From assembly GCA_963739455.1 (NCBI GenBank), contig CAVUAK010000001.1, forward strand, positions 231,300 through 295,299: DNA of 64,000 nt. The letters run 5' to 3'. The notes beneath the pieces were generated by a model. That model did not search any database, was not told the origin of the DNA, and saw nothing but the letters and a program-made list of their open reading frames with translations. Made by a program: the position numbers and the translations under genes. The DNA is from an uncultured Gemmatimonadales bacterium. GTDB taxonomy: Bacteria; Gemmatimonadota; Gemmatimonadetes; Gemmatimonadales; GWC2-71-9. How positions within the stretch are numbered: position 1 is the stretch's first letter; each line of letters opens with the position of its first letter. Positions 30,515 to 64,000 of this stretch are shown here, piece by piece.

Positions 30515-30804
30515 GCGCAGGCAGTACATTCTGTGGCCCCCATGGCCGACAACTCGACCCCACCCGCCGCACTCGCCGCCAGCCTCGCCGACCGCTACCG
30601 GGTCGAGCGCGAGCTGGGCGCCGGCGGCATGGCCACCGTCTACCTCGCTGAAGACCTGAAGCACGGCCGCAAGGTCGCCATCAAGGTCCTCCACCCCGAA
30701 CTCAGTGCCGTCATCGGCGGCGAACGCTTCCTCGCCGAGATCAAGGTCACCGCCGACCTGCAGCACCCCCACATCCTCGGCCTTATCGACTCCGGGGCCG
30801 TTCC

Positions 30805-30862
30805 GTCTGAACTCTGAACTCTCGACCCCTGACCCGTCTGACGACTCACGACTGCCGACTGC
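30805..30862. repeat. degenerate heptamer tract (about 8 units) inside K2, containing a perfect tctgaac duplication
   Basis: g tctgaac tctgaac tctcgac ccctgac ccgtctga cgactca cgactgc cgactgc read directly. Confidence 0.85.
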
Positions 30863-31479
30863 CGGCTTGCTGTATTACGTCATGCCCTTCGTGTCGGGCG
30901 AGTCCCTCCGCGACCGCCTGACCCGCGAGAAACAGCTCCCCGTCGACGATGCGACCCGCCTCGCGAAGGAGGTCGCCTCTGCCCTCGACTATGCCCATCG
31001 CCAGGGCGTCGTCCACCGCGACATCAAGCCCGAGAACATCCTGCTGCAGGAAGGCTCGGCCCTCGTCGCCGACTTCGGCATCGCCCTCGCCGTCCAGCAC
31101 GCCAGCGGCAGTCGCATGACCCAGACCGGCATGTCGCTCGGCACGCCCGTCCTATATGTCGCCCGAGCAGGCAATGGGCGAACGCGTCATCGGGCCGCGC
31201 AGCGATGTGTACGCCCTCGGCGCCATGACCTATGAGATGCTCGTCGGCGATCCGCCCTTCACCGGCAGCACGGTACAGTCGATCGTCGCCAAGGTGATGA
31301 CCGAGAAGCCGCTGCCGCCCTCGCGCATCCGCGACACGATCCCGCCAAACGTCGAGCACGCGGTGATGACGGCGCTGCAGAAGCTCCCCGCCGATCGCTT
31401 CTCCACCGCGAAGGACTTCGCTGACGCGCTCGAGGGCGGACGCTCCGGCACCTACGCCGCGACGGTGGTGACCGGCAAG

Positions 31480-38979: not shown

Positions 38980-39926
38980 ACATCCGTCCCATCACACTCG
39001 ACGAAATCCGCGCCGCGCGCACCCGCATCGCCGGCACCATCCTGCGCACGCCACTCGTCAAGCTCGAGCTCGGCCCCGGCTATCCCGACATCCGCCTCAA
39101 GCTCGAGAACCTGCAGCCCATCAACTCCTTCAAGCTTCGCGGTGCCGCCAACGCCGTTGCCCTGCTGACAGATGCCGAACGGAAGCTCGGCGTCTGGACC
39201 ATCAGTGCCGGCAACGCCGGCCAGGGTGTGGCGTATGCCGCGCGGCAGGCTGGAGTCCCCTGCACGGTCGTCGTCATCGAGACGGCGCCCGCCTCCAAGG
39301 TCGAGCGCATGAAGGCGCTCGGCGCCAAACTGGTGCTGGTGCCGTTCGCCGTCGCATGGAAGGCGCTCGAGGACCGCACCTATCCCGGCATCGAGGGCAC
39401 CTTCGTGCACCCCTTCGATGACCACAACTTCATCGCCGGCAATGCCACGGTTGGTCTCGAGATTCTCGAGGACGTCCCCGATGTCGCCGTCGTCATCGCT
39501 GCCCTAGGCGGCGGCGGCCTCATCGCCGGCGCCGGCAGCGCAATCAGGCCGCTGCGCCCAGACGTCAGGATCCTCGCCGCCGAACCCGAGACGGCGGCGC
39601 CCATGTCGCTCTCACTCGAGAAGGGCTCGCCCCAGGCGTTTCCCGGCTGGCAGGCCTCCTTCATTGACGGCGCAGGTGGCAAGAGTGTCTTTCCGCGCAT
39701 GTGGGAACGCATGCACGGCCTGCTCGACGGCAGCATTGTGGTCACCCTCGAGCAGGTGAAGGCCGCGGTCCGGCTCATGGCCGAGAAGTCCCGGGTCATC
39801 GCCGAGGGCGCCGGCGCCTTGCCGCTCGCCGCCGCACTCACCGGCAAGGCCGGTCCGGGCCCGATCGTGTGCATCGTCTCCGGTGGCAACATCGACCTCG
39901 ACAAGTTCGCCGAGTTCATCGCATGA
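38973..39926 (+). CDS. PLP fold-type II enzyme (threonine/serine dehydratase-like)
   Basis: In frame with track ORF 38658..39926. ATG 38973 gives MTDIRPITLDEIRAARTRIAG... NSFKLRGA lysine motif, SAGNAGQGVAYAA, GGGGLIAG glycine loop. Confidence 0.8.
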   Translation: MTDIRPITLDEIRAARTRIAGTILRTPLVKLELGPGYPDIRLKLENLQPINSFKLRGAANAVALLTDAERKLGVWTISAGNAGQGVAYAARQAGVPCTVVVIETAPASKVERMKALGAKLVLVPFAVAWKALEDRTYPGIEGTFVHPFDDHNFIAGNATVGLEILEDVPDVAVVIAALGGGGLIAGAGSAIRPLRPDVRILAAEPETAAPMSLSLEKGSPQAFPGWQASFIDGAGGKSVFPRMWERMHGLLDGSIVVTLEQVKAAVRLMAEKSRVIAEGAGALPLAAALTGKAGPGPIVCIVSGGNIDLDKFAEFIA

Positions 39927-41974
39927 GCCTGGACGCGCGCCTTGTTGCCGCCCTTGCTGATCGCTACCGCATCGAGCGCGAGCTCGGTGAGGGCGGCATG
40001 GCTACCGTCTACCTCGCCCACGACCTCAAGCACAACCGTCCCGTCGCGATCAAGGTCCTCCGCCCCGAACTCGCCGCCGCACTCGGGGCAGACCGATTCC
40101 TCCGCGAAATCGAGACGACGGCTAATCTCCGCCACCCGAACATCCTCCCATTGTTTGACAGTGGTGCACTGCCGACTGACTCACGACTGCCGACTGACGA
40201 CTCACGACTGCTGTACTACGTCATGCCCTTCATCGACGGCGAGTCGCTCCGAGATCGCTTGAAGCGCGAGGGACAGCTGTCGATTCCCGATGCCCTCCAG
40301 GTCGCCCGCGAAGTGGCCGATGCCCTCGGGTATGCCCACAGCCGCAATGTCATCCATCGCGACATCAAGCCCGAGAACATCCTTCTCGAGCGGGGACATG
40401 CCGTCGTCGCTGATTTCGGCATCGCCCGGGCCGCGAGCACCGCTGGCGCCGGGAGGCTCACCCAGACCGGCATGGCTATCGGCACCCCGGCCTACATGAG
40501 CCCGGAGCAGTCAGTGGGCGAGTCGGATGTCGACGCCCGCAGCGACCTGTACGCGCTCGGTTGCGTGCTGTACGAAATGCTGGCTGGTGAGGCACCCTAC
40601 ACCGGGCCGAATGCGCAGGCCATCATCGCCAAGCGTTTCATGGAGCCGGTGCCACGCATCTCCACCTTGCGGAGCACCGTTTCGCCTGCACTCGAGGCGG
40701 CCGTGAGTCGGCTCCTCGCCAGGTCGCCCGCCGATCGCTTTGCGACTGCGGATGAGTTCGTGAGGGCGCTCGACGATCCCGCGCCAGCCACGGTCACGGC
40801 GCCGGTGGTCGTTGAGGAGGGCTTCTGGATCGTGGTGATGCCCTTCCGGTTCAGCGGCGCGAGCACCGAGCTGACCGCACTGGCAGAAGGACTCACCGAT
40901 GAGATCGTGGCTGGGCTGTCACGATTCTCGTATCTCCGCGTTTCGCTCGGCGAGAAGCCCGGCGCGCGCTATGTGATCGAGGGAACCCTTCGTCAGGCAG
41001 GCGCAGCCCTGCGGCTGTCGGTGCAGCTGGTGGACACGAACTCGCGCGCCCACGTGTGGGCCGAGACCTACGATCGTGCCTTCCAGTCGGGGGACATCTT
41101 CGTGCTGCAGGACGATCTCGTCCCCCGCATCGTCTCCACGGTGGCTGACGCACATGGCGCCCTCCCTCATACCCTGAGCGAAGCACTGCGCGGCAGGGAT
41201 CCGGGTCTGCTCACGCCATACGAGGCCGTGTTGCGCAGCTTTGGCTACGGCTATCGCATGACGCCGGAAGAGCACGCTGCCGTGCGGGCCTGCCTGGAGA
41301 GAGCCGTCACGCAGGCGCCCGGCTACGCCGATGCCTGGGGCATGCTGTCGCTCGTGTATGCGGAGGAGTTCTCCAACGGGTTCAATGCGCGGCCCGATCC
41401 GCTCGGGCGTGCACTCCAGGCGGCTCGGCGCGCAGCCGACGCTGCACCGTCAAGCGCCCTGGCATACAACGCCCTGGCCCGGGCACTGTTCTTCCGGAAG
41501 GAGTTCCCCGCCTTCAGGGTCGCGGCGCAGCGTGCCATTGAACTCAATCCTTTCAACGGACCCACGCTCGCCGGCCTGGGTGGCATGGTGGCGTACGCCG
41601 GCGACTGGGAAGCTGGCTGCGCCCACGTCGAGCGGGCGTTGCGGCTCAACCCGCGACACCCCGGCGGCTACTGGTTCCCCCTGTACTACAATGCCTATCG
41701 TCAGGGGGACTACCGCGCTGCGCTGAACTTCGCCCTCAACATCGACCTCCCGGAATTCTTCGCGACGCACGAGGTCCTGGCCGCCGTCTATGGCCAGCTC
41801 GGGGAACGTGACGCGGCCGCGAGGAGCCTGCGGGAACTGCTCCGGCTGAAGCCCGACTTCGCCGCGACGATGCGCGAAGAAACCGGGAAGTGGCTCGATC
41901 GAGACCTCGTCGAGCACCAGGTCGATGGGCTTCGCAAGGCGGGACTGGAGCTTCCCGATGACATTGGACACTGA
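39923..41974 (+). CDS. Ser/Thr protein kinase K5 (kinase, TolB-N-like segment, TPR), intact
   Basis: In frame with ORF 39701..41974. ATG 39923 overlaps the upstream stop (ATGA) and gives MSLDARLVAALADRYRIERELGEGGMATVYLA. All Hanks motifs present. FWIVVMPFRFSG segment and TPR-like C-terminus. Confidence 0.85.
   Translation: MSLDARLVAALADRYRIERELGEGGMATVYLAHDLKHNRPVAIKVLRPELAAALGADRFLREIETTANLRHPNILPLFDSGALPTDSRLPTDDSRLLYYVMPFIDGESLRDRLKREGQLSIPDALQVAREVADALGYAHSRNVIHRDIKPENILLERGHAVVADFGIARAASTAGAGRLTQTGMAIGTPAYMSPEQSVGESDVDARSDLYALGCVLYEMLAGEAPYTGPNAQAIIAKRFMEPVPRISTLRSTVSPALEAAVSRLLARSPADRFATADEFVRALDDPAPATVTAPVVVEEGFWIVVMPFRFSGASTELTALAEGLTDEIVAGLSRFSYLRVSLGEKPGARYVIEGTLRQAGAALRLSVQLVDTNSRAHVWAETYDRAFQSGDIFVLQDDLVPRIVSTVADAHGALPHTLSEALRGRDPGLLTPYEAVLRSFGYGYRMTPEEHAAVRACLERAVTQAPGYADAWGMLSLVYAEEFSNGFNARPDPLGRALQAARRAADAAPSSALAYNALARALFFRKEFPAFRVAAQRAIELNPFNGPTLAGLGGMVAYAGDWEAGCAHVERALRLNPRHPGGYWFPLYYNAYRQGDYRAALNFALNIDLPEFFATHEVLAAVYGQLGERDAAARSLRELLRLKPDFAATMREETGKWLDRDLVEHQVDGLRKAGLELPDDIGH
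40167..40212. repeat. GACTCAC-family heptamer tract (about 6 units) inside K5
   Basis: cactgcc gactgac tcacgac tgccgac tgacgac tcacgac tgctg encodes LPTDSRLPTDDSRL. Confidence 0.85.
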
Positions 41975-46797: not shown

Positions 46798-49479
46798 GTG
46801 ACAGCCCCCATTGTCAGGCTCCGAGATGCACTTAGCGACCGCTACCAGCTCGAATCCGAGCTCGGAGCGGGCGGAATGGCCACCGTATATCTCGCACAGG
46901 ACCTGAAGCACGGTCGGCAGGTCGCCATCAAGGTCCTTCACCCAGAGCTCGCGGCCGTCATCGGCGCCGATCGCTTCCTCGCCGAGATCAAGGTCACCGC
47001 CAGCCTCCAGCACCCCCACATCCTGCCGCTCTTCGACAGTGGTGCCATCTCCGCAGATGGACGGCTGTCGACTGACGGCTCACTGACGACTCACGACTCA
47101 CGACTGCTGTTCTACGTCATGCCCTATGTCCAGGGCGAGTCGCTCCGCGGCCGGCTCAACCACGATCGCCAGCTTCCCGTTCCCGACGCTGTCCGGATCG
47201 CGACTGAAGTCGCCAGTGCACTCGACTACGCCCATCGCCGCGGCGTCATCCATCGCGACATCAAGCCCGAGAATATCCTCCTGCACGACGGCACCGCGCT
47301 GGTGGCCGACTTCGGCATCGCGCTCGCCCTCACCGCGGCGGGCGGCGGACGCCTGACGCAGACTGGCCTCTCGCTCGGCACGCCAGCCTACATGAGTCCC
47401 GAGCAGGCCATGGGCGAGCGCGACATTGGCGCACGCAGCGATGTCTACGCCCTTGGCGCCATCACCTACGAGATGCTCACCGGCGAGCCCCCCTTCACCG
47501 GGCCCACGGCACAGGCCATCGTGGCCCGCACACTGACGGAAGCTCCGCGCCCCATCTCGCCGCAGCGCAAGAGCGTGCCGCCGTCGGTCGAGAACGCCGT
47601 GCTCACCGCGCTCGAGAAGCTCCCCGCCGATCGCTACGCGACCGCGAAGGAGTTCAGCGACGCCCTCGCCGACGAGAAGGCAAGACCGCGCTCCGGCAAG
47701 GGGAGCACGGTGCAGATGCGGCAGCACACCTGCCGCTCCTGCCGCCCGGTGGGGGTGGGTGGTGGGCGGTGCCGCCGCCGTTGCCGGTGCGATTGCTCTC
47801 GGCATGGCCCTGGGTCGGAGCACCGGCAACGCTGCCGCCTCCACCGCGGGCCCCGTCCGCTTCAGCCTGCCCGAGCTCAACAACGTCGGGTACTTCTCCG
47901 TCGCACCCGACGGTCGCCAGATCCTCGGCGTCTCGCCCGACTCGAGCGGAGTGCTTCACGGCTGGATCCGGAAGCTCGACGATCTCCAGCCGTCCGGCCC
48001 TCTCTGGCACCGCAGGCGCGGAGCGCGTCTGGCTTTCGCCTGACGGCAAGCAGGTGGTCATGCGCGTCGGCGGAGCGCTCAAGCTCCTGCCGCTGTCTGG
48101 AGGGACAGCCCGCGAACTCGACCCAGGTGCGCGGCTATGTCACCGCCGAGTGGGGACCGCAGGACAGCATCGCGGTGGTGAGTGGAGCCGACCTCCTGCT
48201 CGTGCCGGCGCTGGGCGGGCAGCCGCGGGTCATCGCCACGGTTGATAGCGCGGCAGGAGATATCTCCTTTTACATCCCGCGTTTCCTGCCCGGTGGCCGC
48301 CAGCTCCTGGTTGGCCTACGTCACGCGCTCGACTCCATCGCGCTCTACCAGATGGACATCGCGACCGGCAAGCGCGACCATGTGCTGCCAAACGTCCAGG
48401 AGGCGCGCTTCTACGAACCGGGCCGTCTCCTGTGGCTCGACGCCGATGGGACTGTTCGCTACGCGACGTATGACCCGGGCACGAGGAAGGTTGGCGCCAG
48501 CCAGGTCGGCGTGGCCGAGGGCATGGATGACTTCTACGCCAATGGCGATCTCGTGGTGCTCCGGCCCGGCCTGCCCAACCGCAACCTGCGCTTCTACAAC
48601 GAGCGGCTTGGCACCAGCACCGAGGTCGCGTATCCCGACAGTACGGTCAGCGTTCCGGTGTTCTCGTACGATGGCTCCCGTCTCGCCATGTCGATCACGC
48701 CGAGCACCGAGCTTCGCAGCGTGCAGCGGGCCGATCAGGCGCGGGGCACCGACCTCTGGATCCTCGACCGCGCCACCGGGTTGCGCCGCCGCGTCGCTGA
48801 GCAGGCATTTGGCGCCGCCTGGTCGCCCGACGACCAGCGCATCGCTTTCACGCGCACCAACGTGGGCAGCAGTGACCTCTGGATTGCGCCGTCGGCGGGT
48901 GGCGAACCGGTGCGGATCGGCAACGAGAAGACCCGCAAGTTCGGGCTGACCTTCACGCCAGATGGACAGGCGCTCGTCTATGCCCAGCTGCCGACCAATC
49001 GCATTACGATCCAGCCGCTGGCGGCCAGTGCCCCGGCGACGGCACTGTTCGACGACGACGCCGGTGCGGAGGGCGACGCCACCTTCTCGCCCGACGGGAA
49101 GTGGCTGCTCTACCAGACCTTCGACGGACTGAGTGGGCGCGCGGTGGTGCGGGCCTGGCCCGGTCTCGATCGACGCACCGTCATCATGACGGTGGGAAAC
49201 TGTGGCGCACACTGGGGCGACCACGGCACGCGCATCTATGGCTGCACGCCCGATGGCAAGGTGGCCTGGATCGGGTTCGACCCGGCCACCGGCCGTCCCG
49301 TCGGCTCCCCGCAGCCGGTGCCGCAGGTGACCCAGAGCGAGCCCGACTTCGACGTGAACCCGACCGGCCTCGACATCGCCTGGATCTCTGCCCCACCGCG
49401 CTTCGGCACCGAGCCCGTCGTGCTCGCGCACTGGCTCGCCGACGCCGAGCGTCGCCTTCAGGGACTGGGGAAGAGATGA
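46798..49479 (+). pseudogene. Ser/Thr protein kinase K6 (kinase, TM helix, beta-propeller) with three +1 frameshifts hidden inside an apparently open 893-aa ORF
   Basis: The kinase domain is intact. Between ~47720 and 48120 the annotated frame is Arg/Cys-rich nonsense. The TM helix (VVGGAAAVAGAIALGMAL) and first propeller blades read in frame +1 (47759..48043) and then +2 (47769..48245: LSGTAGAERVWLSPDGKQVV). The sense frame returns to the original at ~48120. Confidence 0.7.
47060..47108. repeat. GACTCAC-family heptamer tract (7 units) inside K6
   Basis: gacggct gtcgact gacggct cactgac gactcac gactcac gactgct encodes DGRLSTDGSLTTHDSRL. Confidence 0.85.
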
Positions 49480-53318: not shown

Positions 53319-55916
53319 ATGCCGCTCAACATCGCCGTCGCGGCCCTCAACTGGTTCGCCTCGCGCCAGACAGTCCTCGACACCGGCGTCCGCCGTGCCC
53401 TGCGCATCATGTGCTTCGGCGCGCTGAGCGTCTTTATCGGGAACTGCATCTCGGTCTGGTACCTGCTCGTCCTGCACTCGAAGCCCACGGCCTCACCCGC
53501 CGACTTCTTCTACCTCTCCGACAGCATCCTTCTCCTCGTCGGCCTGCTGATGTTCCCGCTCAGCCGCCGGATCCGCGTGGAGCGCTGGAAGCTCGTCCTC
53601 GACGCCGCCATGGTGCTCGCCGGCGGCGTCGTGCTCGTCTGGTACTTCGCCATCCGGCCGTCGGCCGATGCCCAGGGTGACAGCACGACGCTCACCCTGC
53701 TGACCTACGCCTTCCCGCTCACCAGTCTCCTGTTGCTGCTCGGCGTCACCACCGTGCTGCTGCGCGGGCCGCTCGACAAGAACCGCGAGGCGTTCAGCTG
53801 CCTGGTGGGCGGCATCCTGGTCAGCATCGTCAGTGACCTCGCCTTCGACCTGGTGCTGCTCGAGACCGGTGAGCGGAGTGCCAGCTGGACCGATGGCGTC
53901 TACCTGCTCTCCTATCTCCTCCTCATCGCCAGCGCCGAGCTCTACTGGAAGCGGCCGGTCGCGAGGGGATGGACCACCGCCGATCAGGAGCCCCGCGCCC
54001 AGGTCCTGAGCCCCCTGCCGTATCTCGCGGCGGCGGCGGTGTTCTGGCTCCTGTTCACTGATGGCGTGCACCCCTGGATCGACCCCCTGAGCGGGCTCGT
54101 GGCGGGCGCCACCGTGATCACGTTCCTCATGGTCATCCGGCAGGTGGTGGCAGTGCGCCAGAACGTGCGACTGCTCGAGGAAACCGCCGCCCGTCAGGGC
54201 GAGGCGCGCTTCCGCTCGCTGGTCCAGAACTCGTCCGACGTGATCATCCTCGTGAACACCGCGGCCAGCGTCACCTACGTCAGCCCGTCGGCGTCGCGCG
54301 TGCTGCGCTACGATCCCACCGCCCTCATGGATCGCTCGCTGCTTCACGCTCATCGATCCCGACGATCGCGCGCGCGCCGAGTCCTTCTTCCGCGAAGCGA
54401 CGACCTCCCGCGGCGTCAGTGCACCCACCGAGTTGCGCTTCCTGCAGCCCGAGGGTGCGCCGCTGCATGCCGAGGTGATCGCCACCAACCTTCTCGGCGA
54501 CCCGATCGTGAACGGCATCGTGCTCAACACCCGGGACATCTCCGAGCGGAAGCGCTTCGAGCAGCAGTTGCTGCACCAGGCCTTCCACGACCCGCTCACC
54601 GGCCTCGCCAACCGCGCGCTGTTCCGCGATCGCGTGGATCACGCCCTCAAGCTCGCGAAGCGGCAGCGGCACGCGATCACCGTGCTCTTCCTCGACCTCG
54701 ACGACTTCAAGAAGGTCAACGACAGCTTCGGGCACGGCGAGGGCGACAAGCTGCTGGTCGCTGGCCGCCGAGCGCTTCCGCTCCTGTGCCCGCGCCGCCG
54801 ACACCGTGGCCCGGCTGGGTGGCGACGAGTTCGCCATCCTGATCGAGGATTCCACCGGCCCCGAGGAACAGCAGGCCCTGATCGAGCGGCTCACCAGTTC
54901 CATGGCGCAGCCGTTCATGCTGAGCGGCAACGAGGTGTTCGTCACCGCCAGCGTCGGCATCGCCGCCGCCGTCACCGGCGAGAGCGTGAGCGACGTGCTC
55001 CGCAACGCCGACACCGCCATGTACGCCGCCAAGCGCGCCGGCAAGGGCCGCTTCGAGGCCTACGCCTCGCAGATGTCCTCCGACGTGCGCCATCGCCTGG
55101 AGCTCGAGCGCGGCCCTGCGGCGCGCGCTCGAGAAGGGCGAGCTGGTGCTCCACTACCAGCCCATCGTCTCCCTGCACACCGGCAGCATGACCGGCGTCG
55201 AGGCCCTGGTGCGCTGGGAGCACCCGCAGTTCGGTCACCTGCTGCCCGGGCATTTCATCCCCATGGCGGAGGAGACGGGGCTCATTACCCGCGTTGGCAG
55301 CTGGGTGCTCCACGAGGCTTGCCGCCAGGTCGGGCGCTGGCGCCGGGAGCATCCTGCGTTGAACCTGACGGTGGCAGTGAACATCTCCGGGCGCGAGCTG
55401 CACGAGCACAACATCGTGGAAGACGTGCGCATCGCCCTGGCCGAGACCCGCATCGATCCCAAGGCCCTGGTCCTCGAGATCACCGAGAGCGTGCTGATGC
55501 AGGAGACACCGATGGTGCTCGAGCGCCTGCAGCAGCTCAAGGCACTCGGCGTGCAGCTCGCCATCGACGACTTCGGCACCGGGTACTCGTCGCTGAGCTA
55601 CCTGCAGCGGTTCCCCATCGACATCCTCAAGATCGCCAAGCCGTTCATCGACGAAGTCGGCGGCGGCGGCGATCGATCTGCCCTTGCCCGCGCCATCATC
55701 GGCCTGGGCGACACCCTGAAGCTCCGCACCATCGCCGAGGGCATCGAGACACCCGCCCAGGTGGCAGCGCTCCTCGAGCTCGGCTGCAACATGGGCCAGG
55801 GCTATCACTTCTCCACGGCGCTTACCGCCACGCAGCTCGAGCACGCCCTCGCCGGCCGCACATTCCCCGCCCTACCCGCCTCACCCGCCCTCCCCGCCCT
55901 CCCCGCCCTGTTGTAA
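53319..55916 (+). pseudogene. membrane-anchored PAS-GGDEF-EAL (c-di-GMP turnover) protein with three single-G insertions
   Basis: Pieces 53319..54842, 54433..55191, 54806..56200 and 55146..55916. Multi-TM N-terminus; the frame stays open upstream to 53151, with a possible CTG 53181 start. PAS-like FRSLVQNSSDVIILV, RLGGDEFAIL, HYQPIV..VEALVRWEHP..DDFGTGYSSLSYL. Extra g at 54348, 54763 and 55112. Confidence 0.75.
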
Positions 55917-55985: not shown

Positions 55986-56001
55986 AGTATCCTTGGGCGC
56001 C

Positions 56002-58518
56002 ATGCAGCGATCCGTTCCAGAACTGCTTTCCCCCGCCGGCACCCTCGACGCCGCGCGCGCTGCCCTCGCCAACGGGGCCAACGCCGTCTATCTCGGCGCT
56101 GAGCGCTTCAACGCCCGTGACGACGGTGCCCAGCTCACCATGGACGAGCTGGAACAGGCCTGCCTCCTGGCGCACGCCCGCGGCGCCCGCATCTACCTGA
56201 CGTTCAACGTGCTCATGAAGCCCGCGGAGCTGCGCGAGGCGCTGGTCCACCTGGGTGACTGCATCGACCGCGGCATCGACGCCGCGATCGTCCAGGACAT
56301 TGGCGCCGTGCGGCTCATCCAGCAGGTCTACCCGGAACTCGAGATCCACGGTTCCACCCAGATGACGGTGCACGATGAGTCCGGTGCGCGGGTAGCGCAG
56401 GAACTGGGTATCGACCGCGTCGTGCTCGCCCGCGAGAACACCCTGGAGGACATCCAGGCCATTCGTCAGGCCGTTCCAGGCCTTGGCCTCGAGAGCTTCA
56501 TTCACGGCGCGCTGTGCATCGCCTACTCCGGGCAGTGCTACATGTCGGGCATGATCTCGGAGCGGAGTGCCAATCGCGGCGCCTGCGCCCAGTCCTGCCG
56601 CAAGGACTACGTGCTCACCGACACCGCCGACGGCGCCGAGCTCGATCGCGGTTACCTCATCTCGGCGAAGGACCTGTCGGCGGCAGAGCATCTCGAGGGC
56701 ATTGCCGACGCCGGCATCGGGTGCATCAAGATCGAGGGACGGAAGAAGAAGCCGGAGTACGTCGCGACCGTCACCCACACCTATCGCAACTTCCTCGATA
56801 GGCTGGCGGAGGGGCACTGGGCCCCGCCCACGCCGGTTGAGACGCAACCGCTGGTACAGATCTTCTCCCGCGGCTTCACTGGTGGCATGTATGGCGGGCG
56901 CGCGGGACGCGACTACATCACCCGCAACCAGCCCGATAATCGGGGCGCCGAGCTTGGGGTTGTGGTCGGTATGGAGGGGAACGAGCTGGTCATTGCTGTC
57001 ACCGAGCCGATCGGCGTGGGTGACGGCCTTGGCTTCGAGCATCCCGATGGCGCCGCGCGCGGTAACACCGGCTTCGCCGTCAGTCGCGTGCGCACCATCT
57101 CCACCCGCGACGGGCGAGTGACGCAGGCGATCCCCGCTGACGAGAAGGTGGCTGCCGGCTGGATCGTCGTGCGCTCCTCCCAGGCGTCACTCATCAATGA
57201 GGCACGGGCCTCATTCTCGGCGGTGGAGAAGCGCGCCGATGCGCCCCGCATCCGGCTCGACGCCGCCGTGAGCGGTATCGCCGGCTCGCCACTCACCTTC
57301 ACGTGTACTACTGGTGACGACACCGTCACTCTTCAGAGCGCCATGCCGCTCGGAGTCGCCGAGAAGCGGCCACTGGATTCAGCGCGCCTTCGCGAGCAGC
57401 TCGGCCGCCTCGGCGAGACGCCGTACACGCTCGGCGCACTGGACATCTCAGGCCTCGCCATCGACGTCTTCCTCCCGGTCAGCGAGCTCAACGAACTACG
57501 CCAGCTCGCAGTCAAGGAGCTACTCTCCCGTCGCGCCGCCGCCGAACAGGCCCGTCTCGATGCGCGCGTCGCGGCCATCGACTCGTCCGTGCGAGGCGTT
57601 CGCGCTGCTGAGTCATTGCGAGGCGTTCGCTTCGCGAACGCCGAAGCAATCCCGCGACCTTCGAGCGGAGTCCTCGTCGCCGAGGTCTTTTCCCTCGACC
57701 AGGCCCGTGCGGCAGCGCCTCACGCCGATGAGATCTCCCTCGACCTGTTCCTTCGACACCCCACCCCGCCCACAACCCGGGTCAAGGCGTTGATCGAGGA
57801 ACTGCACGCCGCCGGCAAGATCCTCCGTCTCCGCACCCCCACCATCGTGCGCCCCGAGGAACGGAAAACGCTCGACAAGTGGCTGGCGCTCGGGACGCCG
57901 GTCGTGAGCGGGCACCTCGGCCTGGTCGCGGAGTTGGCCCGTGCCGGCCGCGATGTCGTCGCCGACTATGCGGTCAATTGCTTCAACCAGCACACTGCCG
58001 CCGAGATTTTCCGCCTCGGCGCAACCCGCATTGTCCCGTCAATCGAACTGACTTTGGAAGAGCTGGCCCAGGTCTCCGCCCCATGGGAGGGCGCGGGCTT
58101 CGAGGTGTTCGTCTACGGCCGGCCGGAGGGGATGACGCTGGAACACTGCGTGCTCTCGGCCGCCTTCGATCGCGAGGTGACTACCTGTCGGGACCTCTGC
58201 GTGCAGAAGCACCCGAATGTGGAACTGACGGATCCTGCGGGATATGTCTTTCCGGTAGCGACCGACTCGGCCTGCCGAAATCGCCTGCTGCACTCCCGCC
58301 CGGTTGACGCCTCGGAATACCTGCCGGCGCTCTGGCTGCACGGCGTCCGCACCTTCCGTCTCGTCTTCAACGTTCCCGGCGACCCCGTGGCCGAGGTTAC
58401 CGCCGCTTACCGTGCCGCGATCGATGCCGTGGCCATTGGCGCCAGACCGGATGTGCGTTCGATCCGCAAGCTCAATGGAACGGCCTTCACCCGAGGCCAC
58501 TTCGCCCGCGCCGTGTAG
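56002..58518 (+). CDS. U32-family peptidase (collagenase-like), long form
   Basis: ORF begins at TTG 55993; ATG 56002 gives MQRSVPELLSPAGTLDAARAALANGANAVYLGAERFNAR, typical of the U32 N-terminus. Cys-rich central block ...ALCIAYSGQCYMSG..GACAQSCR. Confidence 0.8.
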   Translation: MQRSVPELLSPAGTLDAARAALANGANAVYLGAERFNARDDGAQLTMDELEQACLLAHARGARIYLTFNVLMKPAELREALVHLGDCIDRGIDAAIVQDIGAVRLIQQVYPELEIHGSTQMTVHDESGARVAQELGIDRVVLARENTLEDIQAIRQAVPGLGLESFIHGALCIAYSGQCYMSGMISERSANRGACAQSCRKDYVLTDTADGAELDRGYLISAKDLSAAEHLEGIADAGIGCIKIEGRKKKPEYVATVTHTYRNFLDRLAEGHWAPPTPVETQPLVQIFSRGFTGGMYGGRAGRDYITRNQPDNRGAELGVVVGMEGNELVIAVTEPIGVGDGLGFEHPDGAARGNTGFAVSRVRTISTRDGRVTQAIPADEKVAAGWIVVRSSQASLINEARASFSAVEKRADAPRIRLDAAVSGIAGSPLTFTCTTGDDTVTLQSAMPLGVAEKRPLDSARLREQLGRLGETPYTLGALDISGLAIDVFLPVSELNELRQLAVKELLSRRAAAEQARLDARVAAIDSSVRGVRAAESLRGVRFANAEAIPRPSSGVLVAEVFSLDQARAAAPHADEISLDLFLRHPTPPTTRVKALIEELHAAGKILRLRTPTIVRPEERKTLDKWLALGTPVVSGHLGLVAELARAGRDVVADYAVNCFNQHTAAEIFRLGATRIVPSIELTLEELAQVSAPWEGAGFEVFVYGRPEGMTLEHCVLSAAFDREVTTCRDLCVQKHPNVELTDPAGYVFPVATDSACRNRLLHSRPVDASEYLPALWLHGVRTFRLVFNVPGDPVAEVTAAYRAAIDAVAIGARPDVRSIRKLNGTAFTRGHFARAV

Positions 58519-58556: not shown

Positions 58557-59450
58557 TTACACGTACAGCCTCCTCAACATGTCTGCCGCCGACTCGTCCA
58601 GCAGTTCCTGGCTCCTCAGCTGGTCAAAGATCCCCAGCAGGTTCTCCACCCGCAGGTGCTGCTTCTCCCGCCCACGGATTTCCCGCACGATCCTGCCCCG
58701 GTGCATCATCAGCACCCTGTCGCCCAGTCGCACCGCCTGGTGCATCGAGTGCGTCACCATCAGCGTCGTGAGCCGCTGCCTCGACACCACCCGCTCCGTC
58801 AGCTTCACCACCTGCTCCACGCTCCGCGGATCGAGCGCCGCGGTGTGCTCATCCAGCAGCAGCAGGCTCGGCTTCACGAGCGTCGCCATCAGCAGCGTCA
58901 GCGCCTGGCGCTCTCCCCCGGAGAGAGTCCCCATCTTCGCGTCGAGCCGATCCTCCAGCCCCAGGTGCAGTGTGCTCACCTGCTTGCGCAGTTCCTCCCT
59001 GCGCGACGTTGTCAGCGCCCAGCGCAGCGCGAACGGGCTCTTCTCCCGGTCGAGCGCCAGCGAGAGGTTCTCCGCGATCGTCAGGTTGGGCGCCGTGCCC
59101 TTGAGCGGATCCTGGAACACTCGGCCCACATGCTGTGCCCGCCGGTACTCATCCTGTTTCGTCACGTCGGCGCCATCGAGCTTGATGGTGCCCGAATCCG
59201 GTGGGAACGCTCCCGCCACCGCGTTGAGCAGCGTGGACTTGCCCGACCCGTTCATCCCCACCACCGTCACGAAATCGCCCGGGGCCAGCGTAAGGCTGAC
59301 GTCGATCAGGGCGCGCACCTCATTTGCCGTGCCGCGCTCGAACGTGTGGTTGAGGTCGTGCACTTCGAGGGTCGGCGGCGGTGTCTCCTGCGCCACGCCG
59401 TGCTCGAAGTCGTAGGCCGCATCGCGCGGAGTCGGCGCGGACTCAGGCAT
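58557..59450 (-). CDS. ABC transporter ATP-binding protein
   Basis: Walker A GMNGSGKST, signature LSGGERQ, Walker B LLLLDEHTAALD. 8-nt overlap with the permease gene. Confidence 0.85.
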   Translation of the reverse strand: MPESAPTPRDAAYDFEHGVAQETPPPTLEVHDLNHTFERGTANEVRALIDVSLTLAPGDFVTVVGMNGSGKSTLLNAVAGAFPPDSGTIKLDGADVTKQDEYRRAQHVGRVFQDPLKGTAPNLTIAENLSLALDREKSPFALRWALTTSRREELRKQVSTLHLGLEDRLDAKMGTLSGGERQALTLLMATLVKPSLLLLDEHTAALDPRSVEQVVKLTERVVSRQRLTTLMVTHSMHQAVRLGDRVLMMHRGRIVREIRGREKQHLRVENLLGIFDQLRSQELLDESAADMLRRLYV

Positions 59451-60378
59451 CGGCGGCCTCCGGGCTCAGTCGACGCCGGCGGATCAGGTCCGGAATGATC
59501 AGCACCGCCAGCACCAGCGCCGCCGTCACCAGCTTGAGCGTGTTCGCCGGCAGGCCTGCCGCAATCGCCGCCGCCACGACGAGTCGTAGCAGGATCGAAC
59601 CCAGCACCACACCGCCGATGCGTGCGCTCATAGACCGGCCCCGCAGCAAGCCCTCGTCGATCGCCACCGCAGCCAGGCCCGTCACCAGGTTCCCGATGCT
59701 CATCTGGATGGTGACGAACCCCTGGTACTGCGCGAACAGTGCACCACTCAGCCCGACCAGCCCGTTGGACACTGCGAGCCCGGCGATGAACACCATCGCG
59801 TCATCGATCCCCATCGAGCGCGCCATCTGCGCATTGTCACCGGTGGCGCGCATCGCGAGGCCGAGCGATGTGCGGAAGAATCGGTCCACCAGGAAAACCG
59901 CGGTGCCCACCGCTGGCAGCATGGCGAGGAAGGTGGAGAGCGTGCGGGCGCTCACCTCGGTGCCGAAGATCGTGGCACCCGACTCCGGGCCGCCGAACCA
60001 CTGCCACAGTGCGAACGCCTGCGTCGGCAGCGTGCGGGTGGACGCGAGCGAGATGTCGCCGCCACCCATGATGAGGAGATCCAGCGAGTAGAGCGCCGTT
60101 GCCACCAGCAGGCCCGAGAGCAAGCGACTCACGCCGAGCCGTCGATGGATCATCCCTGACACCGCCCCTGCCAGCATCCCGGCAATGAATCCCGCCGCCG
60201 ATGCCCAGAACGAGGCCATGCCGCGCGCAAGCAGCACCCCCGCCACGACCGCGCCGAATGCGAACGAACCATCCACCGTGAGATCGAAGGTGTCGAGTAC
60301 CCGGTAGGAGATGTAGACGCCGAGGCCGAGCAGCGAGAGCACCAGCCCCATCGAGAGGGCGCCAATGAGGAGGTTCAC
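59443..60378 (-). CDS. ABC transporter permease (branched-chain amino-acid-type fold, COG4120-like)
   Basis: 311 aa with about 8-9 TM helices. GTGA overlap with the upstream gene. Confidence 0.75.
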   Translation of the reverse strand: MNLLIGALSMGLVLSLLGLGVYISYRVLDTFDLTVDGSFAFGAVVAGVLLARGMASFWASAAGFIAGMLAGAVSGMIHRRLGVSRLLSGLLVATALYSLDLLIMGGGDISLASTRTLPTQAFALWQWFGGPESGATIFGTEVSARTLSTFLAMLPAVGTAVFLVDRFFRTSLGLAMRATGDNAQMARSMGIDDAMVFIAGLAVSNGLVGLSGALFAQYQGFVTIQMSIGNLVTGLAAVAIDEGLLRGRSMSARIGGVVLGSILLRLVVAAAIAAGLPANTLKLVTAALVLAVLIIPDLIRRRRLSPEAADA

Positions 60379-61661
60379 GACCCTCCTTCGATCGCCGAGA
60401 CCGGCGATACCCAGCAGATGCCCCGCTGGAACGCGCTCTCGCCTGCGCCCGCGGCACCGCGATCGTCGTGCAGCAGGTGCATGATCGAGCGGAGCGGCTG
60501 CTGCGAGAAGTACTTGGTCATCAGGGGGCGAAGCGCCACCGTGCGGAGCGGCACTGGGCGGAACTCGAAGACGGCGGCGTGAAAGTGTCCCAGGAGATCG
60601 TTCGACACACCAACTGGACGGAGCAGCGGCGCCAGGCGCGGGTCGGGCTGTCGCGATACGACGCCAGTTACCACCGCCACAGTGCCCTCGTGCACTCGTT
60701 CCGGCGTGATGCTGAAGCCGTCGCGCGCTTCAGGCATGGTGAATTTCACCGGCCGCGACGGGTCTGCCGGAGAGCGGCGGAGGCGAGCGCCCACCAGCCC
60801 CGCCACTTCCACCAGCATCACGACGCCAACCGTGGGAGACGACGAATGATCGAGACATACCCGCGCCAGTTCCGACAGCGGCACCGGTTGTCCACCGGGA
60901 CGCTTCGTGAAGCGGCTCAACGTCTCGAAGCCCCCCTCGCACAGGAGCCCGCTCCCGATCACCGCTGGTGCTGGCTCCTCAGTGGTGCCGATGAGGTAGT
61001 CAGGAACCGCGCCACCCTCGGTGGGCTCGTACGCCACCACGCCCGCCGCCGCAATCAGCTCGCCCATGCGCGGCGCGGCGTCGGCGAACTGCGCTCCGAT
61101 GGCGCCGATGCCCAGGCCGAACGCCTCCGGTCCCACCTTGATGCTGCTGGCATGATCGGCATCGATCCCGCCCCGGTCGATCCATGACGCGTCACCCAGC
61201 ACTCGGCAGGAAAGGCTCGCCCCCGGATTCCGCGCGGCACTTTCGTACAGGCCGTGCAGCAGCACCAGCTTCCCCGCCACTCGCCACTCGCTGGTGCCGC
61301 GCAGCGAGTTGAGCCCGCCCGACGATTGCCGGTTCACGGTGGGTGGCGGAGCTTCCGATCCGTGCACCAGCGAACGCGTCAGGTCCGCCGCGTCGAGCTG
61401 GTGCAGGATCGCCTCGTTCGGCGCCGCAATGCTGAGGACCCCCTTCACCATCGCGAACTCGTGCCCGCCCCGCGCCAGCACCTGCATCGCGGGCGTGCTC
61501 ATGTACGACACGCGGCTCATGTCGATGGTGGCTGTTCGCACCCCCTCTCGCAGGAACTGCGCGAGGATGTCCTCGAGGGCCAGGGCCCCCTCGGCGTCGA
61601 GGCGACCTTCCAAACGAACGACGGCGCCACCGGCGCCGTCGTAGGAAGGAACAGCGCGCAC
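60375..61661 (-). CDS. STAS-domain protein with a ~320-aa C-terminal domain of unknown function
   Basis: 428 aa, GTG start 2 nt after the binding-protein stop. The N-terminal VVRLEGRLDAEGALALEDIL..ATIDMSRVSYMSTPAMQVL is anti-sigma-antagonist/STAS-like. No TM helix or signal peptide. I do not recognise the rest of the protein. Confidence 0.55.
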   Translation of the reverse strand: MRAVPSYDGAGGAVVRLEGRLDAEGALALEDILAQFLREGVRTATIDMSRVSYMSTPAMQVLARGGHEFAMVKGVLSIAAPNEAILHQLDAADLTRSLVHGSEAPPPTVNRQSSGGLNSLRGTSEWRVAGKLVLLHGLYESAARNPGASLSCRVLGDASWIDRGGIDADHASSIKVGPEAFGLGIGAIGAQFADAAPRMGELIAAAGVVAYEPTEGGAVPDYLIGTTEEPAPAVIGSGLLCEGGFETLSRFTKRPGGQPVPLSELARVCLDHSSSPTVGVVMLVEVAGLVGARLRRSPADPSRPVKFTMPEARDGFSITPERVHEGTVAVVTGVVSRQPDPRLAPLLRPVGVSNDLLGHFHAAVFEFRPVPLRTVALRPLMTKYFSQQPLRSIMHLLHDDRGAAGAGESAFQRGICWVSPVSAIEGGS

Positions 61662-61663
61662 GG

Positions 61664-62656
61664 CTACTGGGCTGGGGCCGGCGCCGTCGGATTCTCGCCG
61701 GCGACTGACGTCTTCGTCGTTTCCAGCCTGTAGAACGGCACCGTGGCGAGGCTCTCTCCCTTGAGCGCCTTGGCCACCATGCCGCCTGCCACCACGCCGC
61801 CTTCCTGGAAGTCGGGGAAGAACGCCGCGGTGGCACCCTTCACCACCTCGAACGGCGACGGCGAGAACACCGGGACCTTGTTCTCCTTCGCCACCTTGAT
61901 GATGCTCTCGAACGCCGCGTGCGCCGCATTGCCGTAGATCTCGATCGCGCCCACCTTCTTCGCAATCAAGGCCGTCGTCGCTTCCGCACCCTCGGTCGGG
62001 CTGCTGATCGGCACCGCCACCACCGTCAGGCCCGCCGCCTTCGCCGACGCCGTCATCTTGTCCTTCATGCTCACCGCCAGCGGCTCCAGCGGGCTGTACA
62101 GCACCCCGATGCGCTTGGCGTTCGGCGCCACCTTCTGGATCAGCGCCACGCGGGCGCGCTGCTCCGGGTCGCCCAGGCCCGGCGAGTACACGCCGGTGAT
62201 GTTCGGGAGGTGGGACGAGTCGCTCGTGCCCGCGCCAGCTGCGAACGGATCGGACAGGACGTTGAAGACGACCGGCGTGGTCTTCACCCGCTCCACCGCC
62301 GACTTGAGGGTCTCGTCCTGCAGCGCCACGATCACGTCTGCCTTGGCGTCCAGCGCTGCATCGATCAGGCTCGGCAGAGTGGCCAGGTCGCCCTGGGCGC
62401 TGGAGATGGTAAAGACGAAGTCACGGCCCGGTTCCAGGCCTGCTTCCTGAAGGCCGACCTTGAGCGCGTCCTCGCTCCACTCGCTCCCGATCCAGTCGGC
62501 CGCGCGGATGATCGCAACTGTCTTGGGCTTGGGGGCCGCCGAGGCAGCCATCGCGGTGCTGTCAGCAGCTTTCCCGGCATCGCCCTTATTGCAGGCGCCG
62601 AGCCCGGCAACGAGAATCAGGGCCGACGCTGCCAGTGAACCATACCGCTCGAACAT
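61664..62656 (-). CDS. ABC transporter substrate-binding lipoprotein (COG2984/ABC_sub_bind-like)
   Basis: ORF extends to 62692. ATG 62656 gives MFERYGSLAASALILVAGLGAC. The KTVAIIRAADW..DVIVALQDETLKSAV..VVFNVLSDP pattern is typical of this family (recalled). Confidence 0.7.
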   Translation of the reverse strand: MFERYGSLAASALILVAGLGACNKGDAGKAADSTAMAASAAPKPKTVAIIRAADWIGSEWSEDALKVGLQEAGLEPGRDFVFTISSAQGDLATLPSLIDAALDAKADVIVALQDETLKSAVERVKTTPVVFNVLSDPFAAGAGTSDSSHLPNITGVYSPGLGDPEQRARVALIQKVAPNAKRIGVLYSPLEPLAVSMKDKMTASAKAAGLTVVAVPISSPTEGAEATTALIAKKVGAIEIYGNAAHAAFESIIKVAKENKVPVFSPSPFEVVKGATAAFFPDFQEGGVVAGGMVAKALKGESLATVPFYRLETTKTSVAGENPTAPAPAQ

Positions 62657-62747
62657 TGGAAGAACCCCCGGGATAGAACGTGGCAAGATCACGACACGCC
62701 TGAATCTAACACGCCATCAAGTCATCAAGTCTTCACGCCCTCACGCC

Positions 62748-62766: not shown

Positions 62767-64000
62767 TCAAACCTCGGATTCCCCTTCAACGACGCGAACG
62801 TCGGGTCGAGCGCCAGGTAGTGTGGCGTCAGGATTCCACCCGATCCTCCGGCTCTCCTCGATGAAGTCGATGGCCCGGTCCTTGTTGCCCAGGACGGTCT
62901 CGATCCGGGCCGCGTTGATCAGGATGTAGAAGTGCTGGGTGGTGGCATTCGGGGCGAGGGCGACCGCCTTTGCCAGCAGCGGACGTGCCTCCGCCGCCTT
63001 GCCCTTGATAGCCAGCATCAGGCCATAGAGCACCTGCAGTTGCGGATCGGTTGGGTTGTCCTCCGCCTGCGTCTTCGACAGCGCCAGCGACGAGTCGGCG
63101 TACGCGCGTGCCTTCACCGAATCGCCCGCCTGCCAGTAGGCCATTGCGAGCGCCTGACCCCACCAGGCCCGGTCATTGTCGAAGGCCGACGGCGTGAGCC
63201 GGAATACCAGCTGCCGCTCCCGGTCTTCCAGGATCCAGGAAATCTCCTGATAGCCGGCGAAGTGCGCCGCAATGGCCGGCGCCGCAACGCCGGACTCGAT
63301 GGCCGCGCGGATCCCAGCCCTGGCCTCCTCCAGCTTGCCCTGCAAAACCCTGGCGATGGCGAGCCATTGGATCGAATTGAGGTCCCCCGGACGCACCAGG
63401 AGTGCGGCTGCCGCGGTCGCTTCACCATCCGCGGGACGGCCCAGGTAGTCGTAGACCTGGGAGAGGGAATACAGGGTGATGTAGGACCGGGGATCGATCT
63501 CCCGGGCCCGCTCGAGCTTCGCCAGCGCCGAGCCCAGGTCGCCGGCGCCCATGTCCGATAGGCCGGCGGCCGAAAGCACCTCGGCGTCGGTGGGCGCCGC
63601 CCGCAGGGCGAGGTCCATTTCGGTGCGCGAGAGCTCCGGATTCCTCGCAACGAGCTGGTTGTACCGCGCCGCGGCGAGATGCGTCCTGGCGGCATCCGGA
63701 TCGAGGGCGACGGTCCGCTCCAGCGCCTCCTTGGCCCGCTGGGCGGTGGCCGCATTGACGAACCCGTTCGCGTAGAGCCGGCTCAGTTGCATGCTGAGAA
63801 AAGCCCAGGCATCGCCGAACGTGGAGTCGAGCGCCACCGCCTGCTCCAGGTATCCCGTCGATGCGCGCAGGCTCGCCGGATCAGGGCCCTCCACCGCGCG
63901 CCCCTTGAGGTAGAGCTGGTACGCCTCCACATTGCCGGTGGGGCGCTTGGTGACTTGCTCCTGCTCGCTGCTTCCCAGCGCCACGCCCAGGGCGCCCGCC
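62767..64000 (-). CDS. 3' part of a TPR-repeat protein continuing beyond the window (probably the sensor half of another kinase/regulator)
   Basis: The frame is open from TGA 62767-62769 to the window edge. ..NVEAYQLYLKGRA.. and the following TPR-like repeats parallel the K4/K5 C-termini (..NVEAYDLYLKGHA..). Confidence 0.6.
   Translation of the reverse strand, partial: AGALGVALGSSEQEQVTKRPTGNVEAYQLYLKGRAVEGPDPASLRASTGYLEQAVALDSTFGDAWAFLSMQLSRLYANGFVNAATAQRAKEALERTVALDPDAARTHLAAARYNQLVARNPELSRTEMDLALRAAPTDAEVLSAAGLSDMGAGDLGSALAKLERAREIDPRSYITLYSLSQVYDYLGRPADGEATAAAALLVRPGDLNSIQWLAIARVLQGKLEEARAGIRAAIESGVAAPAIAAHFAGYQEISWILEDRERQLVFRLTPSAFDNDRAWWGQALAMAYWQAGDSVKARAYADSSLALSKTQAEDNPTDPQLQVLYGLMLAIKGKAAEARPLLAKAVALAPNATTQHFYILINAARIETVLGNKDRAIDFIEESRRIGWNPDATLPGARPDVRVVEGESEV

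Follow-up and report, generated by a model that had tools for sequence, protein, structure and literature searches.

A STAS protein with a predicted zinc-enzyme-like second domain is a candidate regulatory subunit of a TrpXYZ-family ABC importer

We analysed a stretch of 64,000 nucleotides (hereafter the window) from a contig of an uncultured Gemmatimonadales bacterium (CAVUAK010000001.1, positions 231,300 to 295,299), in which a minus-strand operon for an ATP-binding cassette (ABC) importer includes the gene of a 428-residue cytoplasmic protein with an N-terminal STAS domain and a large second domain, here called X. This protein, STAS-X, may be a regulatory accessory subunit of the importer. 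In the direction of transcription the operon encodes a substrate-binding lipoprotein (SBP; 61664-62692, 342 residues, PF04392/COG2984 type, PF04392 ABC_sub_bind E 1.1e-35) with the lipobox LGAC at residues ~30-33; STAS-X itself (60375-61661, 428 codons plus a stop, GTG start), identified from the open reading frame (ORF), its homologs and an AlphaFold2 model; a permease of BPD_transp_2/COG4120 type (59443-60378, 311 residues, PF02653 E 4e-21); and an ABC ATPase (58557-59450, 297 residues, PF00005 ABC_tran E 9e-31), in whose sequence the Walker A, Q-loop, LSGGE signature, Walker B and H-loop motifs can all be read intact. An earlier note on this DNA had described the order binding protein, STAS protein, permease and ATPase; the four minus-strand ORFs lie where it placed them, and the Pfam assignments agree with it.

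The junctions between these genes, which the same note had called tight, are exact in the sequence. The SBP and STAS-X genes are separated by a 2-nt gap (61662-61663, TAG-cc-GTG), the STAS-X stop and the permease start share a GTGA overlap at 60375-60378 (junction sequence GAAGGAGGGTCGTGA), and the permease and ATPase genes overlap by 8 nt (59443-59450). A Shine-Dalgarno sequence for the permease, GAAGGAGGG, lies within the 3' end of the STAS-X gene. As read from the sequence, the gap, the two overlaps and this internal Shine-Dalgarno site indicate translational coupling. A promoter and terminator scan inside and upstream of the operon gave no site above chance, and an Rfam scan of the same region gave no element above chance and hence no riboswitch clue to the substrate. 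The SBP scored 112 bits against the TrpX equivalog NF041285, for which the cut-off is 390; being so far under this cut-off, it cannot be assigned tryptophan specificity.

To place the operon among its relatives, the four proteins of the window were compared by tblastn with 89 loci, and counts were made on non-redundant loci. The permease and ATPase genes lie directly 3' of the STAS-X gene in 68 of the 75 loci with enough downstream sequence. The four-gene order is kept across at least six phyla although the identity of STAS-X falls to 33-48%, and the ATPase is 53-62% identical even in other phyla. An SBP gene was detected directly 5' of STAS-X in 56 of 76 loci, and six more loci hold a divergent PF04392 protein there, which brings the count to at least 62 of 76. 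We dropped the idea that many loci are without an SBP on account of these six; an adjacent SBP is truly absent in just one Gemmatimonadota subclade. SBP, STAS-X, permease, ATPase is thus a near-universal order, and the presence of the arrangement in other genomes argues for the accessory or regulatory role that had been proposed from the window alone.

Some loci depart from this order in detail. Two tandem PF04392-like SBP genes precede STAS-X in ten loci (L051, L052, L054, L058, L061, L064, L066, L074, L077 and L082), which belong to Planctomycetota, Acidimicrobiia and Binatia plus one Acidobacteriota (L082); this suggests two substrate specificities feeding a single transporter. Among the flanking genes of loci outside Gemmatimonadota we found no conserved metabolic neighbour, only a transglycosylase, a GNAT acetyltransferase and proteins of unknown function, which give no hint of a pathway. 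In L015, L030, L035, L036 and L059 the tblastn matches to operon genes are split into two pieces in different frames, which is consistent with frameshift errors of long-read assemblies of metagenome-assembled genomes (MAGs) rather than with biology.

STAS-X belongs to a large family. A word-indexed search returned 377 homologs, nearly all full length at 410-440 residues, and those that carry a name are called only 'anti-anti-sigma factor' or 'STAS domain-containing protein'. Relatives are encoded in more than 312 species genomes (contigs from one genome per species), which span at least six phyla and include Gemmatimonadota, Acidobacteriota (Terriglobia, Vicinamibacterales, Pyrinomonadaceae), Planctomycetota (Schlesneria), Acidimicrobiia, Binatia and Eisenbacteria. 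A profile of the X domain alone, scored against 1.84 billion representatives clustered at 50% identity, matched 986 clusters at E <= 1e-3 and 439 at E <= 1e-30. In the best 150 of the 986 clusters, X occupies roughly residues 115-430 of proteins of 405-440 residues, or the proteins are shorter pieces. On these sequences X is essentially always the C-terminal half of a STAS-X protein. We did find X-only ORFs of ~285-300 residues (P0157, P0160, P0204 and P0254), some with N-termini of their own, which may represent split genes, fragments or the result of alternative start calls; P0254, from a low-GC organism, keeps every invariant motif. One homolog of 417 residues (P0024) shares 78% identity with STAS-X across 65% of the query and carries precomputed Pfam assignments to MFS families (PF07690, PF12832), and may be a chimeric or mis-called ORF. 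A further STAS-X locus lies on a 3.1-kb contig (L047) in a MAG labelled 'uncultured Enterobacteriaceae', a label that is probably a binning error.

Two other accounts of the gene were rejected. An artefactual ORF or pseudogene is ruled out by the hundreds of full-length homologs and the confident structure model. A membrane-bound or secreted protein is ruled out by the lack of a signal peptide and by the presence of just one marginal hydrophobic window of 19 residues (276-294; 1.61 against a threshold of 1.6), which we do not read as a transmembrane helix; in the model it lies within a predicted β-strand (277-289).

Residues 1-104 (61350-61661, minus strand) form the STAS domain. Over residues 9-98, and nowhere else in the protein, PF13466 (36.4 bits, cut-off 29.2) and PF01740 (35.1 bits, cut-off 22.6) both matched above their cut-offs, which bears out the earlier description of a STAS N-terminus followed by a large second domain. 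The full-length AlphaFold2 model, built from a 50-sequence alignment, has a mean predicted local distance difference test score (pLDDT) of 88 and a predicted template modelling score (pTM) of 0.87. Foldseek comparison of residues 1-100 with the PDB returned SpoIIAA and RsbV (template modelling (TM) score 0.75-0.88, root-mean-square deviation 1.3-1.9 Å over ~98 residues) and, at lower rank, MlaB in the MlaFEDB and MlaFB structures (6xbd_K, 6xgy_B, 7ch7_E); the domain thus has the STAS fold of a four-stranded β-sheet with α-helices. The STAS-X family profile matched SpoIIAA with E 1e-10, and in sequence and fold together the closest proteins to the domain are SpoIIAA, RsbV and RsfB. A canonical anti-sigma antagonist was nonetheless ruled out, as the TIGR00377 profile for such antagonists scored 31.5 bits, below its cut-off of 53.45, and no GHKL kinase or sigma-factor context is present; no HATPase_c or sigma-factor Pfam family occurs among the called neighbours in nine loci (L001-L009).

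Conservation, the alignment of hidden Markov models (HMMs) and the structure model together single out a Ser55-Thr56 dyad at the β3/α2 junction (61494-61499, minus strand) as a candidate phosphorylation or interface site. All 83 sequences, whatever their phylum, have Ser55 and carry Ser or Thr at position 56. A gapless HMM alignment places Ser55 and Ser/Thr56 on D56 and S57 of SpoIIAA, and helix α2 begins at residue 56 in the predicted model, which makes it possible that Ser/Thr56 is the structural equivalent of the SpoIIAA phospho-site. The STAS domain is followed by an interdomain linker (residues 105-125; 61287-61349, minus strand) that is variable in length and sequence in the alignment and predicted to be disordered, with pLDDT below 50 at residues 107-122.

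The X domain comprises residues 126-428 (60378-61286, minus strand). Sequence searches were run with a single sequence and with two profiles, and residues ~110-428 gave no match even at E <= 10 in Pfam, NCBIfam, PADLOC or PDB sequences; in particular X matched neither PF03306 nor DUF1907 at E <= 10, and the X profile retrieved no acetolactate decarboxylase (ALDC) from the PDB sequences. Structure comparison went further. A domain-only model (pLDDT 87, pTM 0.90) has a two-lobed, β-rich fold for which the best Foldseek match is human PTD012/C11orf54 (1xcr_A, E 6.5e-7, TM score 0.47-0.48), accompanied by six bacterial ALDC entries, including 5yho, 1xv2, 5xne, 6j92 and 4bt2 (E 5e-6 to 4e-5, Foldseek probability 1.0, target-normalised TM score 0.54-0.70), and by weaker matches to PPC/DUF296 and AF0104 proteins. 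The earlier statement that the C-terminal domain can be assigned to no family therefore holds for sequence families and not for the fold, which the model places in the ALDC/PTD012 group with a candidate His triad. On the model, X is a new, unannotated family in this fold group. Nor did X turn out to be a well-known enzyme unrelated to transport, since the match is at the level of fold only, with ~10% identity and an hhalign probability below 1%. A literature search found no paper joining STAS with acetolactate decarboxylase.

In ALDC the zinc ligands are an HxH motif and a His 11 residues further on, and the Glu of a DGE motif, an Arg and a C-terminal Glu surround the substrate (PMC9090609). 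C11orf54 was identified in 2025 as a Zn-dependent β-keto-L-gulonate decarboxylase, and its H266, H268 and H278 superpose on the ALDC triad (PMC12337341). X has a comparable set of conserved residues: H359, H361, H395, E201, D221, R250, E285, D399 and R401 are kept in at least 82 of 83 sequences from all phyla, and G184, G186, G200 and E201 are at least 99% conserved across phyla. Three motifs stand out, all on the minus strand, namely F181-G-L-G-x-G186...R198-x-G200-E201 (61059-61121), which resembles the FGLGTF...DGE motif that is invariant in the ALDC alignment; H359-F-H361 (60579-60587), a candidate HxH metal-binding motif with both His in 83 of 83 sequences; and H395-L-L-x-D399-D-R401 (60459-60479), with a candidate third metal ligand (H395 in 83 of 83, D399 and R401 in 82 of 83). 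The ALDC alignment consisted of genuine PDB and database sequences, a BudA sequence having served only as bait to retrieve those from the PDB. Four motif pairs follow one another in the same N-to-C order in the two families: FGLGxG...R-x-GE(L/I) with FGLGTF...DGEL, L-R-R-x-P with T-R-T-V-P, G-H-F-H-A with G-Y-H-E-H, and H395-L-L-x-D with G-G-H-L-L-D. The predicted strand order of HxH strand, inserted helix, H395 strand and long C-terminal strand fits this register, and the sole local hhalign match, itself non-significant, paired H395-LLHDDRG with H200-FITDDRKG of ALDC. We infer the motif correspondence rather than observe it, because the profile alignment is non-significant and the spacing of the third His differs. 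From the sequence, the conserved, polar, His-rich site of X is probably a metal centre.

In Gemmatimonadota the STAS-X loci are linked to protein kinases. The gene upstream of the window operon, partial in the window (62767-64000, minus strand), appears to be the 3' portion of a gene for a Hanks Ser/Thr kinase of receptor type that runs past the window end and encodes a TPR-rich C-terminal region with TPR Pfam matches. Its translation is 78% identical to residues 495-881 of a 909-residue protein encoded at the same position in a close relative (L003), and the L003 protein combines an N-terminal Pkinase domain with a single hydrophobic segment (335-361) and a TPR region, an architecture that suggests a receptor kinase. 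A Hanks kinase is present in 36 of 48 Gemmatimonadota loci; on the same strand as the operon, one lies upstream in 23 of 37 loci and one starts within 400 nt after the operon in 19 of 42. PP2C phosphatase genes lie nearby in a few loci, namely L003, L010, L012, L013 and L015. Outside Gemmatimonadota, an adjacent kinase was found in none of 36 loci, which rules out the kinase link as a universal feature. The hint that the earlier note took from a kinase-rich neighbourhood therefore reflects a real linkage, but one confined to this phylum, and the kinase wiring was added in this lineage to a STAS-X-transporter module that is older.

Two or more STAS-X paralogs are common in a Gemmatimonadota genome, and pairs of loci were found in single MAGs (L020/L039, L026/L043, L025/L027 and L018/L062). 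In L026/L043 and L018/L062 one copy is kinase-linked and without adjacent transporter genes, and in L026/L043 the other copy lies in a transporter operon. Six loci (L032, L037, L043, L044, L045 and L046) have a stand-alone Hanks kinase of ~280-350 residues directly 3' of STAS-X and no transporter genes there, and in five of these six a kinase match or a large kinase-TPR gene lies upstream as well. In L018 a convergent gene for a 760-residue kinase-TPR protein lies directly downstream of STAS-X instead. An SBP gene still stands directly upstream of STAS-X in L018 and L044, and in L046 an SBP-permease-ATPase operon lies tail-to-tail, ~1 kb off. Phosphorylation of a STAS protein by a Hanks kinase has a precedent in Mycobacterium tuberculosis, where PknD phosphorylates Rv0516c (PMC1847690).

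The window itself holds further kinase genes and a downstream flank that differs from that of its relatives. At least six genes for Hanks-type Ser/Thr kinases stand in tandem at 27527-49479 (plus strand), for example at 33266-35950, 36752-38941, 39701-41974 and 46798-49479; kinase-domain matches at 27527-28380 and 30590-31440 are split across frames, which suggests frameshifts, pseudogenes or assembly indels. Past the ATPase gene, a 38-nt gap leads to a convergent U32 peptidase gene (55993-58518, plus strand), which encodes 841 residues with a DUF3656 domain and itself comes after an EAL-domain ORF (54433-55916, plus strand) that adjoins the operon. This ORF ends in a proline-rich tail of PALPALPALL type, and by comparison with L003 probably represents the last part of a PAS-GGDEF-EAL protein. 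The closest relatives, L003 and L010, have a gene for a 449-residue kinase after the ATPase (L003, 11084-13241 region compared), and L003 has a GT25 glycosyltransferase gene between this kinase and the U32 peptidase; both genes are missing in the window.

From this analysis we favour, at a probability of roughly 45%, a reading in which STAS-X is an ATPase-docked, ligand-sensing regulatory accessory subunit of the importer, to which a phospho-switch has been added in Gemmatimonadota. STAS-X would be the cytoplasmic fourth component of a TrpXYZ-family, SBP-dependent ABC importer, and the helical face of its STAS domain (α1/α2, including Ser55-Ser/Thr56) would dock on the nucleotide-binding subunit as MlaB does on MlaF. 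The X domain, presumably derived from the Zn-dependent ALDC/C11orf54 decarboxylase fold, would bind a small carboxylate-bearing metabolite, and possibly convert it, at a putative site made up of a His3 metal centre (H359, H361, H395) with E201, E285 and R250. Occupancy of this site would alter the engagement of STAS with the ATPase and thereby tune uptake to how much of the cargo, or of its product, is present in the cytoplasm, a feedback akin to trans-inhibition. In Gemmatimonadota, including the window, flanking Hanks-type kinases would phosphorylate STAS-X and switch its partner, with inputs from the upstream receptor kinase with its TPR ectodomain and often from a small soluble kinase encoded downstream. 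The data show the domain make-up and fold, the conserved residues, the coupling within the operon, the spread over phyla and the linkage to kinases; we infer the ATPase binding, the metal binding, the identity of the ligand, the phosphorylation and the direction of regulation. We favour the docked sensor because translation is coupled, because the position between SBP and permease is fixed across phyla, because X is confined to STAS-X, and because the STAS fold is the only one known to dock on an ABC ATPase as a subunit of its own. We are more doubtful of a bolder version, in which STAS-X is a stoichiometric fourth subunit whose Zn-enzyme-derived domain reads or converts the cargo and whose STAS domain relays that state to the ATPase, with Hanks kinases also toggling STAS in Gemmatimonadota, where the TPR ectodomain could sense the loaded SBP.

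Several observations weigh against the docked, phospho-switched sensor. MlaF clamps MlaB by a dedicated C-terminal extension, and seven of the 75 loci, all of them Gemmatimonadota paralogs, have no transporter genes next to STAS-X. Nearly all candidate catalytic residues are kept, as would be expected of a working enzyme, and this is not specific to a sensor. The alignment of X with ALDC by hhalign was non-significant in local, global and relaxed modes (probability 0.7%, ~10% identity), and the third His lies 34 residues from the HxH motif, against 10-11 in ALDC and C11orf54. As to the switch, Pro/Ala57 falls on the canonical phospho-Ser58 of SpoIIAA in the gapless HMM alignment; on this alignment the phosphorylatable Ser/Thr that the earlier note thought worth seeking in the STAS loop would lie not at the canonical position but in the invariant Ser-Ser/Thr dyad one to two residues upstream. 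This dyad is just as invariant in phyla without linked kinases, and its conservation is therefore no evidence of phosphorylation.

The candidate active site is also what would be looked for if STAS-X were a transport-coupled enzyme, a 'transport metabolon' in which X is an active Zn lyase or decarboxylase-like enzyme that converts the import and STAS merely tethers or oligomerises. The nearest folds, ALDC and C11orf54, are both bona fide Zn decarboxylases of β-keto acids; X has a candidate for each of the three His, two Glu and one Arg of the ALDC active site, and these residues vary hardly or not at all between phyla; STAS-X is co-translated with the transporter subunits; and STAS domains of the SulP family recruit metabolic partners, as YchM/DauA does with acyl carrier protein. 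We nevertheless consider such an enzyme unlikely, given that X matches neither PF03306 nor DUF1907 and has no significant profile-profile match, that its third-His spacing is unlike that of known enzymes, and that no further pathway enzymes are conserved beside the operon. The Gemmatimonadota paralogs that are paired with kinases, and sometimes with an SBP, in the absence of permease and ATPase genes are hard to square with an enzyme that processes cargo, and fit a switch or sensor better.

Those same paralogs, present in seven loci without transporter genes, would find a place if STAS-X were a partner-switching signal protein that makes no contact with the transporter and is co-transcribed so that importer and STAS-X answer the same nutrient condition. 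In sequence and fold its STAS domain comes nearest to SpoIIAA, RsbV and RsfB, the Gemmatimonadota proteins are paired with a small soluble kinase much as SpoIIAA is with SpoIIAB, and PP2C genes lie nearby in five loci. Even so, we regard contact-free partner switching as improbable because the operon is conserved in phyla without kinases: the loci of phyla other than Gemmatimonadota lack linked kinases, phosphatases, GHKL anti-sigma kinases and sigma factors but keep the four-gene order with its overlaps, and a slot between SBP and permease in at least six phyla would be unusual for a co-regulated passenger. Least probable, to the point of being very unlikely, is an assembly or stability factor that stabilises the ATPase or aids its association with the permease, with X and its metal site purely structural. 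Tight translational coupling of the genes would suit such a factor, and MlaB is required for the stability of MlaF and its association with MlaE (PMC7367683), but a 300-residue domain with about ten invariant charged or His residues exceeds the needs of a scaffold, and characterised TrpXYZ transporters function without one.

To our knowledge, post-translational control of ABC importers has been described for only a handful of systems, namely MetNI, ModBC, MalFGK and OpuA. MlaFB counts as a further case (PMC7367683). STAS-X is probably a previously undescribed regulatory or accessory transporter subunit, and the module is conserved in hundreds of species, which belong to Acidobacteriota, Gemmatimonadota, Planctomycetota and further soil phyla that have been little studied. 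The earlier proposal that it would be a new accessory component stands as far as its conserved accessory context goes, but a stand-alone STAS protein on an ABC transporter has a precedent in MlaB-MlaF (PMC7367683). Each principle is in fact precedented, STAS on a nucleotide-binding domain by MlaB, a ligand-sensing module on an importer ATPase by MetN, ModC and MalK, and a Hanks kinase acting on a STAS protein by PknD; what is new is a widespread, four-component version of the TrpXYZ-family importer with a STAS-Zn-fold subunit. If the favoured reading is right, the MlaB principle of STAS docking on a nucleotide-binding domain would widen from lipid transporters to classical nutrient importers, a new domain family would be defined in the ALDC/C11orf54 superfamily, and Gemmatimonadota would offer a testable link between Hanks-kinase signalling and nutrient uptake. 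Were the cargo-reading fourth subunit also true, it would amount to a way of controlling ABC importers that is new to science and widespread among major soil phyla. Even if the model fails, X merits definition as a family because automated annotation says just 'anti-anti-sigma factor'.

Of the known systems, the TrpXYZ importers share with the window operon the same three core families in the same order (PF04392 SBP, COG4120 permease, COG1101 ATPase). Those that have been characterised consist of three genes (PMC9382623), the number of components that the earlier note gave as normal for importers of this type. The window operon differs from them in its fourth gene, between SBP and permease, and in an SBP that lies far under the TrpX cut-off. 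X resembles ALDC and C11orf54/PTD012 in its two-lobed fold and in having an invariant HxH plus a further invariant His. It is ~70 residues longer than ALDC, with a predicted helix inserted between the HxH and the third His, and unlike both enzymes it is fused to a STAS domain and linked to a transporter, with no acetoin or pentose-pathway genes nearby. The regulatory domains of MetN (C2), ModC and MalK are cytoplasmic ligand-binding modules on the nucleotide-binding subunit of an importer that throttle uptake by trans-inhibition. These modules are C-terminal domains of the ATPases themselves and have unrelated folds, whereas STAS-X would be a separate polypeptide attached via its STAS domain.

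SpoIIAA, RsbV and RsfB match residues 1-104 best in sequence and fold, and a further likeness is that in Gemmatimonadota the STAS-X gene is accompanied by genes for protein kinases and in some loci for PP2C phosphatases. SpoIIAA-type systems use GHKL anti-sigma kinases, whereas the STAS-X loci have Hanks-type kinases and no linked sigma or anti-sigma genes. The phospho-Ser position of the SpoIIAA DSSG motif is Pro or Ala in STAS-X in the gapless alignment, and STAS-X adds a large domain and a conserved transporter context. In the PknD/Rv0516c pair, phosphorylation by a Hanks kinase alters the partner binding of a STAS protein, as proposed for STAS-X, but there it affects Thr2 of an N-terminal extension and feeds sigma-F regulation, with no transporter involved (PMC1847690). 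MlaB is, like STAS-X, a stand-alone cytoplasmic STAS protein encoded with an ABC ATPase and a permease, with a conserved Ser/Thr where α2 begins. In MlaB this residue is Thr52, which lies in the middle of the interface that α1-α3 form with the helical subdomain of MlaF; MlaF depends on MlaB for its stability and activity, and MlaB has been proposed as a regulator of the ATPase (PMC7367683). MlaB is a single domain of ~100 residues and serves an MCE-type lipid transporter (MlaE, MlaD) that has no PF04392 SBP. STAS-X, which would dock on its ATPase in a similar manner, carries in addition a 300-residue Zn-fold domain and belongs to an SBP-dependent BPD_transp_2 importer.

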